A stretch of 64,000 nucleotides of DNA from Candidatus Methanoperedenaceae archaeon (GTDB lineage Archaea; Halobacteriota; Methanosarcinia; Methanosarcinales; Methanoperedenaceae), in contig CAVWCX010000024.1 in assembly GCA_963753595.1 (NCBI GenBank), positions 32,001 through 96,000 on the forward strand. The letters run 5' to 3'. A model generated the notes under the pieces. It was not told the DNA's origin. It did no database searches and saw nothing but the letters and a program-made list of their open reading frames with translations. Numbering within the stretch: the first letter of the stretch is position 1; each line of letters starts with the position of its first letter. A program made the position numbers and the translations under genes. Below, one piece after another: positions 3,187-29,198 of this stretch.

Positions 3187-3259
3187 GCCTGGGTGGGGTA
3201 GCTGGTTATCCTATGGGACTGTGGATCCTACGACCCGGGTTCGAATCCCGGCCCGGGCC
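3187..3259 (+). tRNA. tRNA-His (GUG)
   Basis: Acceptor GCCTGGG/CCCGGGC, anticodon arm TGGGA-CT GTG GA-TCCTA, T arm CCGGG-TTCGAAT-CCCGG; CCA not encoded. Confidence 0.95.
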
Positions 3260-4254: not shown

Positions 4255-4304
4255 GTTAAAATTAGGTTTCATTAATTCCTTTACAAAATTTTGTATATTG
4301 CTTC

Positions 4305-4475
4305 CCGTAACGGTATTTATCCACCAAAATCCCGTTACGCAATACATACAATAATTTCCCGTTACGCAATTGTGTATGTTGATTTCCGTAACGGTATTTA
4401 TGGACTGAAATTCCGTTACGGGATTTGACCAGAAAAATCCCGTTACGCAATTCGTCTAAAAAATTCCCGTTACGG
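4305..4475. repeat. 7 copies of CCGTWACG core at exact 27-bp period
   Basis: Cores start at 4305, 4332, 4359, 4386, 4413, 4440, 4467. Confidence 0.9.
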
Positions 4476-4648
4476 GAAGTAAGTATAATATTTTTATTTA
4501 AACCTCTTATTTTAATTTATAGGACACGTTCTATAATCTGGCAAAGGTTAATCTATCCCTGGCAATAATTATCATTAGGATATTTTTTTGTTTTTAAAAA
4601 TATTTGCGTTTTTTGGGCAAAAAACACCCAAAAAAAGGCAAAAGCAGT

Positions 4649-4684
4649 AAAAACTGTATATAATATTTGTTATATACAGTTTTT
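4649..4684. other. dif-like tyrosine recombinase site
   Basis: AAAAACTGTATATAA-TATTTG-TTATATACAGTTTTT: perfect inverted arms, 6-bp spacer, ATAA-N6-TTAT geometry; 500 bp upstream of a Xer-like gene. Confidence 0.7.
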
Positions 4685-4694
4685 TTGGCTAAAA

Positions 4695-5105
4695 ATGAAT
4701 CGAAATCTCTATTTGATGTTAGTAATATTTTATGCCGACGTGACCAATAAAAAATACATCAGAAAGAACTATATAACCTGCAGCAGATGCGGAAGAAAAA
4801 AAATCCATCATGCACATGGATTATGCAGTGGATGCTATATGTCGGTTCATCGAATAGAACAGATAAAAAAACATAACGCTGAAGCGTATCATAATATTCC
4901 CTACGATTTATACCTAAAAATAACAGAAAAATGCTACATATGCGGTTTTGATTCTATAGTTGAACTTCATCATATTGATGAAAACCATGAAAATATATCC
5001 TTGAATAACCTTGTCGGTTTATGTCCTAATCACCATGCTATGATCCATCATAGAGATTTCAATACAGAAATAAAAAAATTGATAACTTGTATTCAAATCC
5101 AATAA
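4695..5105 (+). CDS. Zn-finger plus HNH endonuclease
   Basis: CSRC...HAHGLCSGC, then CYIC...ELHHIDENHEN...NLVGLCPNHH. Confidence 0.8.
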   Translation: MNRNLYLMLVIFYADVTNKKYIRKNYITCSRCGRKKIHHAHGLCSGCYMSVHRIEQIKKHNAEAYHNIPYDLYLKITEKCYICGFDSIVELHHIDENHENISLNNLVGLCPNHHAMIHHRDFNTEIKKLITCIQIQ

Positions 5106-5178
5106 ATCCAAAGCTCATTTATAAAATATTATAGGGATAATTATAATAATATCAAACTCCATTAATGAAAACTGATTT

Positions 5179-6009
5179 ATGATAGTAGATGAGCGTCTTA
5201 AAAAGCTTAACACTGAGGCAAAGTTGAGAGGCTTCTCACCTCAGACAACAAAAATGTATTTGTTTTATAATCAGAAATTACTTGAATATACAAGAAAGGA
5301 ACCAGCAGATATCACAGAAGATGACATAAAAGATTATCTGGGATCCAAACTTTCTGACGATTCACTTTCAAATGCTACGATAGCGCTAATAAAAGCTGCC
5401 TTTAAATTTTTTTATACAGAAATTCTTGGAAAAAATATCTCTCAAATAAAAACTCCAAAGAGGTCACAAAAACTTCCAATAGTCCTTAGCCGGACTGAGA
5501 TAAAAAACCTCATTGAAAAAACAGAAAATATCAAGCACAGGCTTATAATTGAACTCCTCTATTCCACCGGTTTGAGACTTTCAGAATGTATCAACCTGAA
5601 ATATTCTGACCTTGATCTAAATGATGGTATAGGCTGGGTTCGTTTGGGAAAAGGTTCAAAAGACAGAATTTTTATTATTTCTGAGGTATTCAAGAAAGAT
5701 CTCCTCGACTACAAAGAGAAAAATGGTTCAGATGGAAAAGGATACATATTTTTAGTAAATGGTAAAAAAATGACATATAGAGGCATTCAGCACGCCATAA
5801 AAGTATCCGCTTTGCGCGCCGGCATCGAGAAATCCGTGCATGTGCACACGCTGCGGCATTCTTTTGCAACACACCTTCTTGAGAACGGTGTCGATATAAG
5901 GAAAATACAAAAGCTGCTTGGGCATTCGAATTTACAGACTACGCAGATATACACACAGGTATCTTCTGAGGAGATAAAGAAGATCAAAAGCCCGCTGGAT
6001 ATGCTTTGA
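5179..6009 (+). CDS. XerA/XerD-like tyrosine recombinase
   Basis: TGLRLSE, GKGSKDR, HTLRHSFATHLLE, LLGH, TTQIY; 276 aa. Confidence 0.93.
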   Translation: MIVDERLKKLNTEAKLRGFSPQTTKMYLFYNQKLLEYTRKEPADITEDDIKDYLGSKLSDDSLSNATIALIKAAFKFFYTEILGKNISQIKTPKRSQKLPIVLSRTEIKNLIEKTENIKHRLIIELLYSTGLRLSECINLKYSDLDLNDGIGWVRLGKGSKDRIFIISEVFKKDLLDYKEKNGSDGKGYIFLVNGKKMTYRGIQHAIKVSALRAGIEKSVHVHTLRHSFATHLLENGVDIRKIQKLLGHSNLQTTQIYTQVSSEEIKKIKSPLDML

Positions 6010-6047
6010 TGTTATAAATAAAATATATAATAATATTTATATTATTA

Positions 6048-6329
6048 CTATTTTATCTCGCTTTGATGTTGGTCATATATCAGTCTTTCTTTTTCTTTCT
6101 TTAGTTCCATTTCCCTGCGAGCAATTGCTTTCATAGCTTCAGTAGGTTTATAGTTCAAATTGATCCTGTGTTTCTGCTCCCGGGTATATACAACATAACC
6201 ATACAACAGGAATGCAACTGTTGCGATCGGTATCAGAAATACCCATCCGACAACAAAACCCATAAAAGCTAACCCTATCAATGAGACAAACCCAAGTCTT
6301 AACTTTCTATTCTTAAAGATTTCCTTCAT
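6048..6329 (-). CDS. Small membrane protein (2 TM plus charged tail)
   Basis: 93-aa ORF, GGGAG RBS upstream, hydrophobic N-half. Confidence 0.6.
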   Translation of the reverse strand: MKEIFKNRKLRLGFVSLIGLAFMGFVVGWVFLIPIATVAFLLYGYVVYTREQKHRINLNYKPTEAMKAIARREMELKKEKERLIYDQHQSEIK

Positions 6330-6427
6330 ATCGAAACTCCCTTTTCATTACATTTCATATTTCTACTCCATAGTGATAATTGTTTCGTAGGAGAACGAAC
6401 TAACTATTGAATATAATTTGTATTTAA

Positions 6428-6470
6428 TTGCGTAACGGAATTTTTTTGAATGATTAGCGTAACGGAATTT
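6428..6470. repeat. Two GCGTAACGGAATTT copies, 27-bp period, inverted relative to the 4305 array
   Basis: Cores at 6431 and 6458. Confidence 0.8.
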
Positions 6471-6523
6471 ATAGAATATCTTTGAAAGATTAGTCAGTAA
6501 TATTTCCCATTTTAATATGATGA

Positions 6524-6765
6524 GTAAGTGGGCAGAAAGGGGGATTATGGTGGTATAGAAAAAATTTCTCTGCCCACTACAATTCGTATATATACGAACA
6601 AAACTATATATAGTTTACGTTTCTTGTAAAATCACATATTATCCTCTAAAACCTGGTATAGGAGGTAGTGGGCTTTTGGGATTTATGGTGGTGTGGTATC
6701 GAAAAAAAATATTTTTCTGCCCACTACAATTCGTATATATGCGAACCAAAGTATTTATAGTTTAC
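6524..6765. repeat. Two ~95-100 bp tandem units, each a stem-loop plus palindrome plus TATA-like box
   Basis: 6524-6618 and 6665-6765 share ATGGTGGT...TCTGCCCACTACAATTCGTATATATRCGAAC.AAA.TAT.TATAGTTTAC. Confidence 0.8.
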
Positions 6766-6865
6766 TGTCATAATCATTATAAGTATTAATATGCATGAAT
6801 ATCTGACCTGGAACACCTGTTGCTTGTATCGTTGCTCGTTATAATTTCACGATTCTTATAACAAA

Positions 6866-6930
6866 ATCCGTAACGGCATTTCTAACAAAAAATTGCGTAA
6901 CGGCATCTTTATATATTCCCGTAACGCAAT
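6866..6930. repeat. Three further CGTAACG cores
   Basis: Cores at 6869, 6896, 6920 (27 and 24 bp spacing). Confidence 0.8.
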
Positions 6931-6939
6931 TAGAATATC

Positions 6940-7185
6940 ATGACTGAACGTAAATATACCCGCTGGAAAAAATGCCTTATATGTGATGATTTTGTAAAAC
7001 TCATGTTCCCGGAGGACGCAAAGGATATGCTCATGATCTACGAACCCGTAGAAGGAATGAGCGATGAATCCGGGAACTGGAAAAAAAAACAAATGGGATA
7101 TATACACCGGTCATGTCTTCTAAAAGCAGCATCACTGAAGCCAAACAATGAAGAAAGAAACAGCAGTAGTTCAGAGGTCGTATAG
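6940..7185 (+). CDS. Small putative Zn-binding protein
   Basis: CLIC...HRSC; stop overlaps the ubiD start. Confidence 0.5.
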   Translation: MTERKYTRWKKCLICDDFVKLMFPEDAKDMLMIYEPVEGMSDESGNWKKKQMGYIHRSCLLKAASLKPNNEERNSSSSEVV

Positions 7186-8627
7186 TGGCATATAAGGATT
7201 TAAGGGAATTTATTGAAGTTCTCGAAAAACGAGGACTTCTGAAGCGGATAAAAACAGAAGTAAGTGCAGAGCTTGAGATCACTGAAATTCTTGACAGGTG
7301 TATGAAAAATAACGGCCCTGCACTTCTTTTTGAAAATGTATTAGGCTATAAGATGCCTGTATTTGCAAATGCGTTCGGTACAATGGAACGAATGTGCCTT
7401 GCACTTGACGTAAATGATCTTGATGAAATCGGTGCAAGGATAAAAAAGCTCATGGAATTTGAAGCCCCATCCGGATTATGGGAGGGAATAAAAAAGCTGC
7501 CTGAGGTAGTTGAACTTACATCATTTGCCCCCAAATATGTAAGATCAGGCCCGTGCAAAGAAGTAATTCTTAAAGATAAATTTTCACTTGATGATTTCCC
7601 TGTATTGAAATGCTGGCCCGGGGACGGGGGGCGCTTTATAACGCTTCCTCTTGTATTCACAAAAAACCCAAAAACCCGGAAGCAGAACGTAGGAATGTAC
7701 AGGATGCAGGTATATGATGCAAAAACAACAGGCATGCACTGGCATATCCATAAACACGGGGCGAGGGATTACGCTGATTCAGCAGGTAACGGAAAAATCG
7801 AGGTTGCCGTCGCTATCGGGGCAGATCCTTCTGTTGTATATTCAGCAACTGCGCCGCTTCCCGATAATATCGATGAGATAATGTTTGCCGGGTTCCTCCG
7901 TAAAAAGAACGTGGAGCTTGTTAAATGTGAAACTGTTGACCTTTATGTCCCCGCACATGCCGAAATTATCCTTGAAGGATATGTGGATGAAAAAGAGCGC
8001 CGCACAGAAGGACCTTTCGGCGACCACACAGGATATTATTCACTCGCAGATGAGTTCCCGGTATTCCATATAACATGCATTACACACCGAAAGAATCCCA
8101 TTTATCATGCCACCATCGTGGGAATACCGCCAATGGAAGACGCATATCTTGGAAAAGCAACAGAAAGGATCTTCCTTCCGCTCATGAAAGCCCAGCTTCC
8201 TGAAATTGTCGATGTCAACCTGCCTGTTGAAGCTGTTTTCCATAACCTGTGCATTGTATCCATAAAAAAGCGGTATCCAGGACATGCAAAGAAAGTCATG
8301 TTCGCACTCTGGGGAATGGGACAGATGATGTTCGCTAAGACCATAATCGTGCTTGATGATGATGTGAATATCCAGGACATGAGGGAAGTTCTCTGGGCAA
8401 CAACGACGCGAATGGATCCTGCCAGGGATGTTACGATCATTGATAATGCGCCGACAGATACGCTTGATCATGCTTCGAAAATGGCCAACCTCGGTTCCAA
8501 AATGGGAATTGATGCCACACGAAAAGGACAGGATGAAGGATTCAACCGGGAATGGCCTGATGCTTTGAAAATGGATGCAAGAGTAAAAGCGCGGGTGGAT
8601 ACGATATGGAAGGAGCTCGGATTATAA
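7185..8627 (+). CDS. ubiD: UbiD-family (menaquinone biosynthesis) decarboxylase
   Basis: DLREFI, NVGMYRMQV, EGPFGDHTGYY, SKMGIDAT. Confidence 0.92.
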   Translation: MAYKDLREFIEVLEKRGLLKRIKTEVSAELEITEILDRCMKNNGPALLFENVLGYKMPVFANAFGTMERMCLALDVNDLDEIGARIKKLMEFEAPSGLWEGIKKLPEVVELTSFAPKYVRSGPCKEVILKDKFSLDDFPVLKCWPGDGGRFITLPLVFTKNPKTRKQNVGMYRMQVYDAKTTGMHWHIHKHGARDYADSAGNGKIEVAVAIGADPSVVYSATAPLPDNIDEIMFAGFLRKKNVELVKCETVDLYVPAHAEIILEGYVDEKERRTEGPFGDHTGYYSLADEFPVFHITCITHRKNPIYHATIVGIPPMEDAYLGKATERIFLPLMKAQLPEIVDVNLPVEAVFHNLCIVSIKKRYPGHAKKVMFALWGMGQMMFAKTIIVLDDDVNIQDMREVLWATTTRMDPARDVTIIDNAPTDTLDHASKMANLGSKMGIDATRKGQDEGFNREWPDALKMDARVKARVDTIWKELGL

Positions 8628-27035: not shown

Positions 27036-29198
27036 ATGGATAAAAAGGAAGAAGAGTTTCTCAAGAAACTTCTCTCAACATTTAAAATCGAGGCAAAAGA
27101 GCACCTGGATGCAATAACTTCAGTCCTGATCGAGCTTGAAAAAGCTACTTCCGGAAAGGAGATGGAACTTATTGAAACGGTCTTCAGGGAAGCACACAGC
27201 CTCAAAGGTGCAGCCCGTTCCGTAAATTTAAAAGATATTGAGTCACTTTGCCAGTCAATGGAAAATATATTTGCATCGTTGAAACGCAAAGAGATTGCCC
27301 CCTCCCCACAAATATTCGACGTGCTTCATATTGCTGCTGATTATATCAGCAGACTGATAGCCAGGGAAGAAGAAATAAATATTCCAGAAAAAACTAAGAT
27401 CAAGGAAATTATCCATGACCTCGAAAGCATATTAAAAGGCGTTCCAATTCAACAACGCGAAAAGTCACTGGTTGAAGAGGAACCTGAAAAAACAGACGAA
27501 TCCCAATCCTCGCCATCGGTAGAAACTGTCAGGATCTCTACGGCAAAATTAGACTCGCTCTTATTCCAGGCAGAAGAGATGCTTTCTGTAAAACTTTCAG
27601 CAGGCCAGCAAGCAGTTATGTTGCGAGAGAGTGCAGCCTCTTTTGCAGTATGGAAAAAAGAATTTGAACATATAAAGCCCGATTTTGCGATGCATGATTT
27701 CATAAGATCACTTGAAACCAGGTTAACACTGCTTGCCAGGACCGCTGAATATGACAACAGGCACTTTGGGGGAATGGTGGACAATCTGCTTGGTGATATG
27801 AAAAGTGTGCTGATGCTGCCATTCTCATCACTTTCAGGGGGTTTCCCAAAGCTTGTCCGTGACCTTTCGCATGACAGGGGTAAAGAAGTGGAACTGATAA
27901 TTGAAGGAGAAGATATCGAAATCGACAGGCGGATCCTGGAAGAAATGAAAGACCCGCTCATTCACTTATTAAGAAATTGCATCGACCATGGCATTGAAAA
28001 GCCTGATGAACGCAGGCTTATGAAGAAAATGCCATGTGGAACCATCAGGCTTGCCTTAAATTCAAGAGATGGCAGCAAGATCGAGATCAAGATATCAGAT
28101 GATGGGGCTGGGATCGACGCTTCACTGATAAAGTCTGCTGCCATAAAGCGCGGTATCATAACCCATGAAAAAGCCGGAAAACTCAATGATGAGGAGGCTC
28201 TCTCACTTATTTTCAAGTCAGGGATTTCCACAAGCCCGATCATTACTGAAGTTTCAGGAAGGGGGCTTGGCCTTGCAATAGTTTACGAGAAAGTGGAAAA
28301 ACTGAACGGGATCGTTTCTTTCCAGACACGGGTAGGTATCGGGACAACATTCAGGATCATTGTTCCTCTTACCCTTGCTACATTCAGGGGATTATTAGTC
28401 CAGGTGAACGAACAGCTTTTTGTTCTTCCGGTGACAAATGTTGAAAGAGCGTTAAGGGTCAGGAATGACCAGATAAAAACCATGGAGAACCGCGAAACCA
28501 TTACTCTTAACGGTGAGGTCATTTCACTTGCCAGGCTTGGGAATGTCCTGGAACTTCCCGGAAAAAATAAGAGCGATCCTGATAAGAACACACAGATAGC
28601 GATCCTTGGGTCTTCCGGGAAACACATTGCGTTCACTGTGGATGAAATCCTTAACGAACAGGAAGTGCTGGTGAAAAGCCTGGGCCGGCAGCTGTCTCGT
28701 GTACGAAATATTTCCGGTGCAACTGTGCTTGGAAGCGGCAAGGTTGCGCCAATCCTGAATGTTCATGATCTACTAAAGTCAGCAGTGAAGGGATCTGATG
28801 CCGCCACACCTGTTGTGACAGAAGCAAAGACTAAAAGAAATTCTGTGCTGGTAGCGGAAGATTCGATAACATCAAGGACTTTACTTAAGAATATTCTGGA
28901 AACTGCCGGTTATGATGTCAAAACAGCGGTTGATGGTGTGGATGCTTTTACTCTATTAAAAAACCAGGAGTTTGATTTAGTGGTATCTGATGTGGATATG
29001 CCAGGGATGAACGGGTTTGAGCTCACGGCGAAGATCCGCGCCGATAAAAAGATATCAGAGCTGCCGGTTGTACTTGTTACCGCGCTTGAATCCCGTGAAC
29101 ATAAAGAGCGAGGGATAGCGGTAGGGGCAAATGCATACATCGTGAAAAGCAGTTTTGACCAGAGCAATTTGCTTGAAGTTATCCAGAGGTTGATATGA
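27036..29198 (+). CDS. cheA: CheA-receiver hybrid (WspE-like)
   Basis: REAHSLKG (Hpt), HLLRNCIDHG, DDGAG, SGRGLGL, CheW domain, C-terminal REC. Confidence 0.95.
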   Translation: MDKKEEEFLKKLLSTFKIEAKEHLDAITSVLIELEKATSGKEMELIETVFREAHSLKGAARSVNLKDIESLCQSMENIFASLKRKEIAPSPQIFDVLHIAADYISRLIAREEEINIPEKTKIKEIIHDLESILKGVPIQQREKSLVEEEPEKTDESQSSPSVETVRISTAKLDSLLFQAEEMLSVKLSAGQQAVMLRESAASFAVWKKEFEHIKPDFAMHDFIRSLETRLTLLARTAEYDNRHFGGMVDNLLGDMKSVLMLPFSSLSGGFPKLVRDLSHDRGKEVELIIEGEDIEIDRRILEEMKDPLIHLLRNCIDHGIEKPDERRLMKKMPCGTIRLALNSRDGSKIEIKISDDGAGIDASLIKSAAIKRGIITHEKAGKLNDEEALSLIFKSGISTSPIITEVSGRGLGLAIVYEKVEKLNGIVSFQTRVGIGTTFRIIVPLTLATFRGLLVQVNEQLFVLPVTNVERALRVRNDQIKTMENRETITLNGEVISLARLGNVLELPGKNKSDPDKNTQIAILGSSGKHIAFTVDEILNEQEVLVKSLGRQLSRVRNISGATVLGSGKVAPILNVHDLLKSAVKGSDAATPVVTEAKTKRNSVLVAEDSITSRTLLKNILETAGYDVKTAVDGVDAFTLLKNQEFDLVVSDVDMPGMNGFELTAKIRADKKISELPVVLVTALESREHKERGIAVGANAYIVKSSFDQSNLLEVIQRLI

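Follow-up and report, generated by a model that had tools for sequence, protein, structure and literature searches.

Phased palindromic arrays flank the chromosomal dif-xerA locus in the archaeal family Methanoperedenaceae

A stretch of 64,000 nucleotides from a Candidatus Methanoperedenaceae archaeon (GenBank assembly GCA_963753595.1, contig CAVWCX010000024.1, positions 32,001 to 96,000; hereafter the window, with positions counted from its first letter) carries, on both sides of a dif-like site and the gene for the tyrosine recombinase XerA, arrays of a short palindrome centred on the heptamer CGTWACG (the core). Here, we describe these arrays, which are a real, strongly conserved and lineage-specific cis-element bracketing the chromosomal dif-xerA locus of the Methanoperedenaceae. 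The sites share one motif, stand in phase, are confined to the locus, are conserved despite the divergence of the spacers between them, and are linked to dif; their role, be it in recombination, in chromosome organisation or only in transcription, we infer. A protein acting at dif is the most likely explanation, with control of recombination and organisation of the chromosome as interesting possibilities and local control of transcription as the sober alternative. The arrangement is conserved and apparently new to the literature as far as searched: full-text searches and term look-ups within Methanoperedens papers found no description of these arrays. The features that carry the argument are as follows.

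4301..4480, no strand assigned: upstream (dif-side) array of seven palindromic sites, cores 4306 to 4468, in 27-bp steps
4649..4684, no strand assigned: dif-like core site for XerA, a perfect 15-6-15 inverted repeat with an 11-6-11 core at 4653-4680
5179..6009, forward strand: xerA, chromosomal tyrosine recombinase (Pfam Phage_integrase and SAM_4; NF040815 recomb_XerA_Arch)
6424..6470, no strand assigned: downstream array 1, two sites, cores 6431 and 6458
6862..6932, no strand assigned: downstream array 2, three sites, cores 6869, 6896 and 6920

The core occurs 13 times in the window, compared with an average of 1.79 and at most 5 in dinucleotide shuffles (0 of 100 reached 13), and 12 of the 13 copies lie at 4306-6926. 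Both this clustering and a spacing of mostly 27 bp on either side had been proposed in a preliminary description made by reading the DNA, and the core coordinates agree with it: every step of the upstream array (4306, 4333, 4360, 4387, 4414, 4441, 4468) is exactly 27 bp, as are the downstream steps 6431/6458 and 6869/6896, the remaining one, 6896/6920, being 24 bp. The site sequences given there did not hold, given that CCGTTACGCAAT, said to prevail on the left, is exact in only three of the seven left sites, and ATTGCGTAACGG, said to be the reading of the right clusters, in two of five, with site 6920 in the 'left' orientation. Alignment of the 14 sites of the locus instead places the core at the centre of a palindrome of about 19 bp, AAATTCCGTWACGGAATTT. 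The left array also contains an 81-bp triple-unit repeat, and the sites of downstream array 2 bracket a TATA-like TTTATATA at 6908-6915, just 5' of an open reading frame (ORF) of 81 amino acids (aa). Several relatives share the closing step of 24 bp and have their last site, as here, about 17 bp ahead of the start codon of this ORF.

Within the source genome, the motif is rare and essentially restricted to the dif-xerA locus. The 2.89-Mb assembly holds 75 cores in all, 14 of them in the array region, and it is at this locus that they form dense phased clusters; the motif is not common genome-wide. The sole further pair of cores 27 bp apart in the assembly is found at 27340/27367 of the contig to which the window belongs (C24, 187 kb). 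This pair is 4.6 kb outside the left end of the window and precedes the start of a dCTP-deaminase/dUTPase-like gene (dcd) by 75-100 bp, and all the clustered cores fall within about 12 kb of C24. In a genome-wide search with a symmetrised weight matrix, the 12 top-scoring matches all fell at the array locus, a result that is partly circular because the matrix was trained on these very sites. Eight of the nine weaker single matches examined lie inside ORFs and a single one (C37:10509) is intergenic, and on these counts a genome-wide regulon was rejected.

Pairs of cores 27 bp apart were identified in 45 of 48 Methanoperedenaceae genomes and in none of the 102 genomes from the other five families of the order Methanosarcinales, a reversed-pattern control giving at most one match per genome. 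For an unbiased sample, 30 loci were chosen by Xer homology alone, blind to the arrays. Cores were present within 1.5 kb in 29 of these loci and on both sides in 25. In the 110.7 kb that the loci span, 248 cores were counted, an approximately 100-fold enrichment over the remainder of the source genome with its roughly 0.02 cores per kb. Among 25 non-redundant loci with 203 sites, 141 spacings between neighbouring sites did not exceed 120 bp, and of these 106 were 27 bp, 17 were 26 bp and 5 were 24 bp, although the spacers between sites are only about 40% alike in sequence. The relatives have 4-15 cores each, within about 2 kb of xerA.

The common layout, recurring in relatives, consists of four clusters: one to three sites near the start of a divergent dcd; three to four sites ending about 185 bp from the centre of dif (last upstream site to dif centre, 175-196 bp in 14 of 24 loci, measured by hand); three to four sites starting 10-16 bp past the xerA stop, the counterpart of downstream array 1; and three sites bracketing a TATA-like box just before the gene for the 81-aa protein, hereafter Cys81, which overlaps ubiD. 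The flanks themselves, dcd on one side and Cys81 with UbiD on the other, recur in many species. The source genome departs from this layout in that dcd and two sites lie about 9 kb away from the remaining clusters, the upstream array is enlarged to seven sites, and a 93-aa ORF and two copies of a dispersed repeat are inserted downstream.

A search for three-core stretches over all species-representative genomes returned 112, of which 32 hold homologues of window genes; the others, mostly with high G+C or bacterial titles, were taken as unrelated tandem repeats and were not individually checked. At the Xer-homologue loci outside the family (two in family f6, one in f8), comparable arrays were not found, and the eight pattern matches in viral contigs were all unrelated tandem repeats. 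When 115 metagenome contigs were sorted with our own filter of AT-rich flanks and spacers, 83 proved to be unrelated tandem repeats and 32 were Methanoperedens-like; 18 of the latter include xer or a neighbour gene, and the other 14, mostly shorter than 1.7 kb, match none of the proteins of the window.

The identity of the recombinase and of its site is backed by several lines of comparison. As the preliminary description had it, the gene is a xer: in addition to the Pfam matches, the protein scores 261.7 bits against the NCBIfam model NF040815, whose cut-off for a XerA equivalog is 220. A match to xerA at E <= 1e-80 was obtained in 47 of 53 family genomes, with one close copy in each (one genome, G037, has an additional Xer paralogue, 51% identical), and identity drops with taxonomic distance, from 74-92% within the genus to 75% in g13 and 69% in genus g14. 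Judged by copy number and this pattern of identity, xerA is predicted to be a single chromosomal copy that is inherited vertically. XerA above the curated cut-off was observed in three of the 81 genomes of a class-wide sample, namely, the source genome, a congener and a member of a different family, in which no arrays were found; in the order's largest family, 29 of 36 genomes had no Xer match at E <= 1e-40. Xer/dif looks patchy in the class, and the Methanoperedenaceae stand out by having it.

The dif site, also named in the preliminary description, is a perfect inverted repeat 5' of xerA, and a matching pattern, NNNN-Y-R-TATAA-N6-TTATA-Y-R-NNNN with arms mostly ACTG...CAGT, was detected upstream of xer in 29 of the 30 Xer-selected loci. 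The arms covary (ACTGTATATAA/TTATATACAGT, ACTGCGTATAA/TTATACGCAGT, AGTACGTATAA/TTATACGTACT, TTGTCGTATAA/TTATACGACAA) and the 6-bp spacer is variable, and the site therefore has the appearance of a recombination core bound by a homodimer. With its 11-6-11 repeat, compensatory arm variants and variable spacer, the putative dif site is credible. Its layout matches that of published archaeal dif sites: like the XerA/dif systems of Pyrococcus, Thermococcus, Thermoplasma and Sulfolobus, the locus combines a single XerA-type recombinase, here above the equivalog cut-off, with an 11-6-11 dyad, here with TATAA/TTATA inner arms, the available portions of PMC2958812 and PMC8371274 giving 11-bp arms and a 6-bp spacer. 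The differences are that dif lies here 60-90 bp upstream of xerA, or of a gene inserted between the two, whereas in Thermococcales it is not beside xerA, according to the available portion of PMC2958812, and that dif is flanked here by phased arrays of a second, unrelated palindrome. By these comparisons, the cassette is best described as a chromosomal dif-xerA module, not a mobile element. In metagenome contigs, the likeness to the window breaks at 4664, the boundary between the left arm and the spacer of dif, and resumes at 5814, inside xerA, with 692 other letters in between; one metagenome contig that breaks at 4664 continues with a right arm of another type, yielding a dif with unlike arms.

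Genomes in which the locus is rearranged separate the arrays from their usual neighbours. In genus g14, dif-xerA is located between a GPI gene and a gene for a class-I tRNA synthetase, and two plus two sites still flank it, about 185 bp from dif; the Cys81 gene and ubiD are on a separate contig, without sites. At locus L052, dcd is located elsewhere, again without sites. In genome G002, nine sites, a conserved AT-rich block and dif share one contig and xerA is on another, where no core and no dif occur within 1.5 kb of xerA. From these three layouts it follows that the arrays go with dif and not with the flanking genes nor, in one case, with xerA.

The arrays on the two sides had been described as lying in inverted orientation. 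Because the sites are palindromic, only two features give them an orientation, namely, which of A and T stands at the centre and which of C and G occupies positions -4/+4, and by these letters a weak but reproducible mirrored bias across dif-xer exists, and not a strict inversion. In the 25 non-redundant loci, the central base is T in 73 and A in 33 of the upstream sites, and A in 69 and T in 28 of the downstream ones; C stands at -4 in 99 of 106 upstream sites and replaces G at +4 in 32, and the downstream sites mirror this base pattern. Counted per locus in the 30 Xer-selected loci, T outnumbers A upstream in 18 and the reverse holds in 4, and A outnumbers T downstream in 24 and the reverse holds in 1, all of these counts coming from kindred genomes and hence being non-independent. 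Given that the genomes are related and that arrays grow by duplication of units, the bias may be inherited rather than selected.

We interpret the arrays, with about even confidence, as docking sites for a putative dimeric DNA-binding protein that would build a complex around dif. One sequence-specific dimeric protein would occupy each palindrome of about 19 bp, and, as the centre spacing of 27 bp corresponds to about 2.6 helical turns, neighbouring dimers would face nearly opposite sides of the DNA. The occupied sites would form two to four clusters, of which one ends about 185 bp from dif and one starts right after the xerA stop, with further clusters, in many species, at the promoters of the outward-pointing genes on either side. 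On either side of dif, the bound protein would then assemble a higher-order complex, and this complex would govern the access or directionality of XerA recombination, a local chromosome boundary, or both, with repression of the adjacent promoters as a side effect. An organiser around a chromosome-resolution locus, comparable to KOPS or matS, was among the suggestions of the preliminary description. Such a putative organiser fits, in that the arrays travel with dif and are confined to the locus; the comparison is loose, the motif being found not across a large domain but in about 12 kb of C24 and, in relatives, in about 2 kb around xer. A more specific proposal, in which mirror-polar phased arrays recruit a dedicated protein that encloses dif and acts as a direction-dependent barrier or as a synapsis scaffold for forks, Smc-ScpAB or XerA, appears to us rather unlikely.

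Several observations weigh against docking around dif. No binding protein was identified, and the docking role is a predicted one. All the sites are in intergenic, promoter-bearing DNA, and the last one, placed between the TATA-like box and the start codon of Cys81, looks like a plain repressor operator. The distance from dif to the array is not fixed, ranging from 157 to 494 bp across 24 loci, and in some loci the cores are one-sided (L273, L277) or lacking (L294). The cumulative GC skew of C24 and that of a relative's contig of 329 kb, in both of which local effects dominate, show no clear extremum at the locus and do not place the arrays relative to the replication terminus. Finally, the mirrored polarity could stem from duplication of units, such as the 81-bp triple units of the left array, together with an old inverted duplication, rather than from selection.

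Among the other explanations, ordinary operator arrays, through which a local transcription factor would repress or activate xerA and the outward-facing flanking genes (dcd and Cys81-ubiD), perhaps by looping from cluster to cluster and without a direct role at dif, are a possibility to be taken seriously, if on the unlikely side. Every cluster is intergenic; array 2, which encloses a TATA-like box and whose last site precedes the Cys81 start by about 17 bp, is arranged as an operator might be and recurs so in relatives; a core pair stands 75-100 bp ahead of the dcd start; both pairs of g14 are upstream of genes that face outwards, those for GPI and the tRNA synthetase; and a promoter directed towards dif-xerA could reside in the AT-rich block that follows the upstream array. 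However, when the flanks are swapped (dcd/UbiD for GPI/tRNA synthetase), the sites remain with dif-xer, and dcd in L052 and Cys81-UbiD in g14, each located elsewhere, are without sites. Seven to nine phased sites are, furthermore, many for a single promoter, no conserved regulator gene adjoins the locus, and further members of a regulon were not found in the genome. The clusters other than array 2 are 75-500 bp from gene starts or follow the xerA stop. If, instead, the asymmetric sites were arranged as mirrored polar barriers that block forks, Smc-ScpAB or RNA polymerase in one direction and so define a zone of termination or resolution, in the manner of Tus-Ter, RTP-Ter or a CTCF-like boundary, the mirrored polarity, reproducible across genomes, and the bracketing of dif by the arrays would be accounted for, and a protein roadblock at dif-flanking DNA has a precedent in Thermococcus kodakarensis, as described in the available portion of PMC11840125. 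We consider such barriers quite unlikely: the polarity is no more than about 70:30 and may be historical, GC skew of C24 and of the relative's contig does not place dif at the terminus, and no barrier protein is known.

The arrays had also been proposed to be the multi-site ends of a small tyrosine-recombinase element. The element would be mobile or invertible, its terminal inverted repeats resembling the ends of Tn7 or Mu. The roughly inverted placement of the arrays on both sides of a recombinase gene would agree with this, as would the different neighbours of the module in g14 and the breakpoints at or between arrays (dcd and two sites 9 kb away in the source genome; dcd located across xer in L008/L052 and in L079). 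Such an element nevertheless seems very improbable to us and the proposal was not supported, as the recombinase is an orthologue of XerA with one close copy per genome (apart from the 51% paralogue of G037) whose identity tracks taxonomic distance, the same flanks recur in many species, neither an empty site nor an extra copy was seen, and viral contigs yielded no comparable arrays. A check for inversion or excision gave no sign of either: among the joints listed for four metagenome contig sets, all but 4 of the total, none changes strand and none goes back outside the dispersed repeat, a weak negative given that rare forms are lost from contigs. A replication origin, with the arrays as iterons or sites for an initiator of the type that binds the origin recognition box (ORB), beside an AT-rich unwinding block, is the least credible of these explanations. 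The phased repeats do adjoin a conserved AT-rich block, and the TTCC...GGAA dyad superficially recalls what we take to be the ORB cores, but in the six genomes checked no orc1/cdc6 lies near the arrays and xer and cdc6 are on different contigs, no Cdc6_C match was obtained on C24, and the skew does not switch at the locus. It is on contig C37, immediately upstream of cdc6, that repeats of the canonical ORB type (CTCCAGTGGAAA...GGGGT) are arranged in inverted fashion about an AT-rich stretch, and a canonical Orc1/Cdc6 origin at the arrays was rejected on that ground.

The C37 region deserves a description of its own. At about 6.3-6.65 kb (L155 522-849), three repeats of this type, two direct and one inverted, flank an AT-rich stretch of about 230 bp upstream of the best-scoring orc1/cdc6 of the assembly, and this region is a probable chromosomal replication origin. 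The intergenic match at C37:10509, a single good site (AAACTGCGTAACGCGAAT), is located 135 bp upstream of a second tyrosine integrase, of 350 aa, 2.4 kb downstream from the cdc6 beside the putative origin. A look-alike with one mismatch (TTCCATAACGGAA) is present in G037 at about position 27,010 of contig C6, approximately 260 bp upstream of the 51%-identical Xer paralogue; an exact counterpart of the C37:10509 site was not found upstream of that integrase, and the likeness between the two genomes may be due to chance.

As to the protein that would dock at the arrays, the conserved neighbour genes gave no match to a DNA-binding family, and no regulator gene is conserved beside the locus. Cys81 was considered, given that it is found, like the arrays, in 45 of 48 family genomes and 0 of 102 others and that the sites bracket its promoter in the genus; it is a doubtful binder, its g14 copy being on another contig without sites and its gene overlapping the start of UbiD. 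All 56 clusters of Cys81 homologues are unnamed or hypothetical, and the structure model is poor, with a mean predicted local distance difference test score (pLDDT) of 62. The other candidate, XerA itself, was suggested by the resemblance of the GCGTA half-site to the dif arm ACTGCGTA. Despite this likeness, binding of the arrays by XerA is unsupported and unlikely, because the dif arms vary among species and the array motif does not.

The remaining features of the locus are listed below.

3187..3259, forward strand: tRNA-His (GTG), given for context only (ARAGORN; Rfam tRNA, 56.1 bits)
4486..4523, no strand assigned: conserved AT-rich block directly after the last upstream site, with the core AAACCTCTTATTTTAATTTAT
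4695..5105, forward strand: zinc-ribbon and HNH-like ORF between dif and xerA, by sub-threshold matches
6048..6329, reverse strand: membrane ORF of 93 aa, variably inserted past the xerA stop, ahead of the downstream array
6515..6770, no strand assigned: dispersed repeat of about 100 bp, two copies 147 bp apart, each with the palindrome TTCGTATATATRCGAA, outside the arrays
6940..7185, forward strand: Cys81, an 81-aa CCHC protein, family-restricted, overlapping the UbiD start
7185..8627, forward strand: UbiD-family menaquinone-biosynthesis decarboxylase, a flanking gene

The surroundings are of a housekeeping character (ribosomal L15e, TBP, purD, ClpB, UbiD, UbiA). Both ARAGORN and Rfam recovered the tRNA-His named as a neighbour in the preliminary description, and the Rfam scan gave no other RNA match. 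The AT-rich block is conserved genus-wide in the alignment and unique in the source genome, where two other matches have 3 mismatches each; it is possibly a promoter. The ORF between dif and xerA had been called an HNH gene, which is weakly supported: no Pfam match was obtained at E < 0.01 (HNH_2, at E = 1.4, is below threshold), and the best match among solved structures is the HNH region of IscB at E = 3e-4, followed by a group II intron maturase at E = 0.03. None of its 14 homologue clusters is named, and since the homologues have 120-131 aa, its true start may be about 15 codons further in. The gene is present in eight of the 30 Xer-selected loci, those with the most similar XerA, and is read as a later insertion between dif and xerA.

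Downstream of xerA, the 93-aa ORF is found in only some relatives, and a metagenome contig joins 6010 to 6376 without it; DNA look-alikes occur elsewhere in the genome (contig C30, 80% identity; contig C28, 73% over 132 bases), and the ORF may be a small mobile or duplicated gene. The dispersed repeat has five copies in the genome (two on C24, two on C2 and one on C20) and occurs in many places in relatives and congeners. Each copy contains an 8-bp inverted repeat, GTGGGCAG...CTGCCCAC, and its palindrome TTCGTATATATRCGAA fits the pattern TTCGTA-N4-TACGAA, which we take to be the box of the methanogen regulator MsvR. In Cys81, residues C12, C15, H56 and C59 are invariant, and the gene overlaps the start of the menaquinone UbiD-type decarboxylase in g14 as well; the protein may be an unrecognised small partner of that enzyme.

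Accessory DNA beside Xer sites is familiar from the plasmid sites cer and psi, where DNA bound by ArgR, PepA and ArcA abuts the core on one side only. By analogy, about 200 bp of protein-binding DNA beside the Xer core could impose resolution selectivity without FtsK; the present locus differs in that dif and the site closest to it are usually separated by about 185 bp, that the arrays are two-sided and, on the xerA side, about 900 bp off, and that the sites are repeats of a single motif. Short motifs tied to the dif or terminus region are also shared with matS/MatP, KOPS/FtsK, Tus-Ter and RTP-Ter; matS is a palindrome bound by a dimer, and Ter sites occur as mirror images to either side of the terminus. 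Yet KOPS, matS and Ter motifs are spread over tens to hundreds of kilobases, unlike the tightly phased arrays within about 2 kb of xerA, for which no homologous binding protein is indicated. Phased copies of a dyad are likewise found in partition centromeres (parC/ParR, sopC), and suggest cooperative coating by dimers; here, in contrast, no gene for a partition ATPase or adaptor is adjacent, and the arrays are tied to dif and not to an origin or plasmid.

A proposed archaeal parallel concerns Thermococcus kodakarensis, in which it is the intergenic DNA flanking dif, rather than dif itself or XerA, that is both required and sufficient for an Smc-dependent domain boundary via TrmBL2, as reported in 2025 in the available portion of PMC11840125. 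[quoted passage not shown] The Methanoperedenaceae arrays could be comparable to this TrmBL2 roadblock for Smc-ScpAB in that the DNA surrounding dif, and not dif or XerA, would recruit an organising protein; they differ in that the signal is a sharply defined 19-bp palindrome in a 27-bp register.

Archaea lack FtsK, and the control of XerA is therefore an open question, as put in the available portion of PMC8371274. A defined, conserved and countable cis-element beside dif would make this question experimentally approachable in methane oxidisers, a lineage of environmentally important archaea: the 19-bp motif can be used as bait for its binding protein and can be mutated in reconstituted XerA/dif reactions. 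Should the arrays prove to be no more than operators, the finding would be modest and amount to a local regulator of unusual elaborateness. If, on the other hand, the rather unlikely barrier or synapsis scaffold does enclose dif, it would fix where sister chromosomes are finished and unlinked, limiting XerA to the resolution of dimers, and the Methanoperedenaceae would have a sequence-specific answer to the problem that bacteria solve via FtsK, MatP or Tus.

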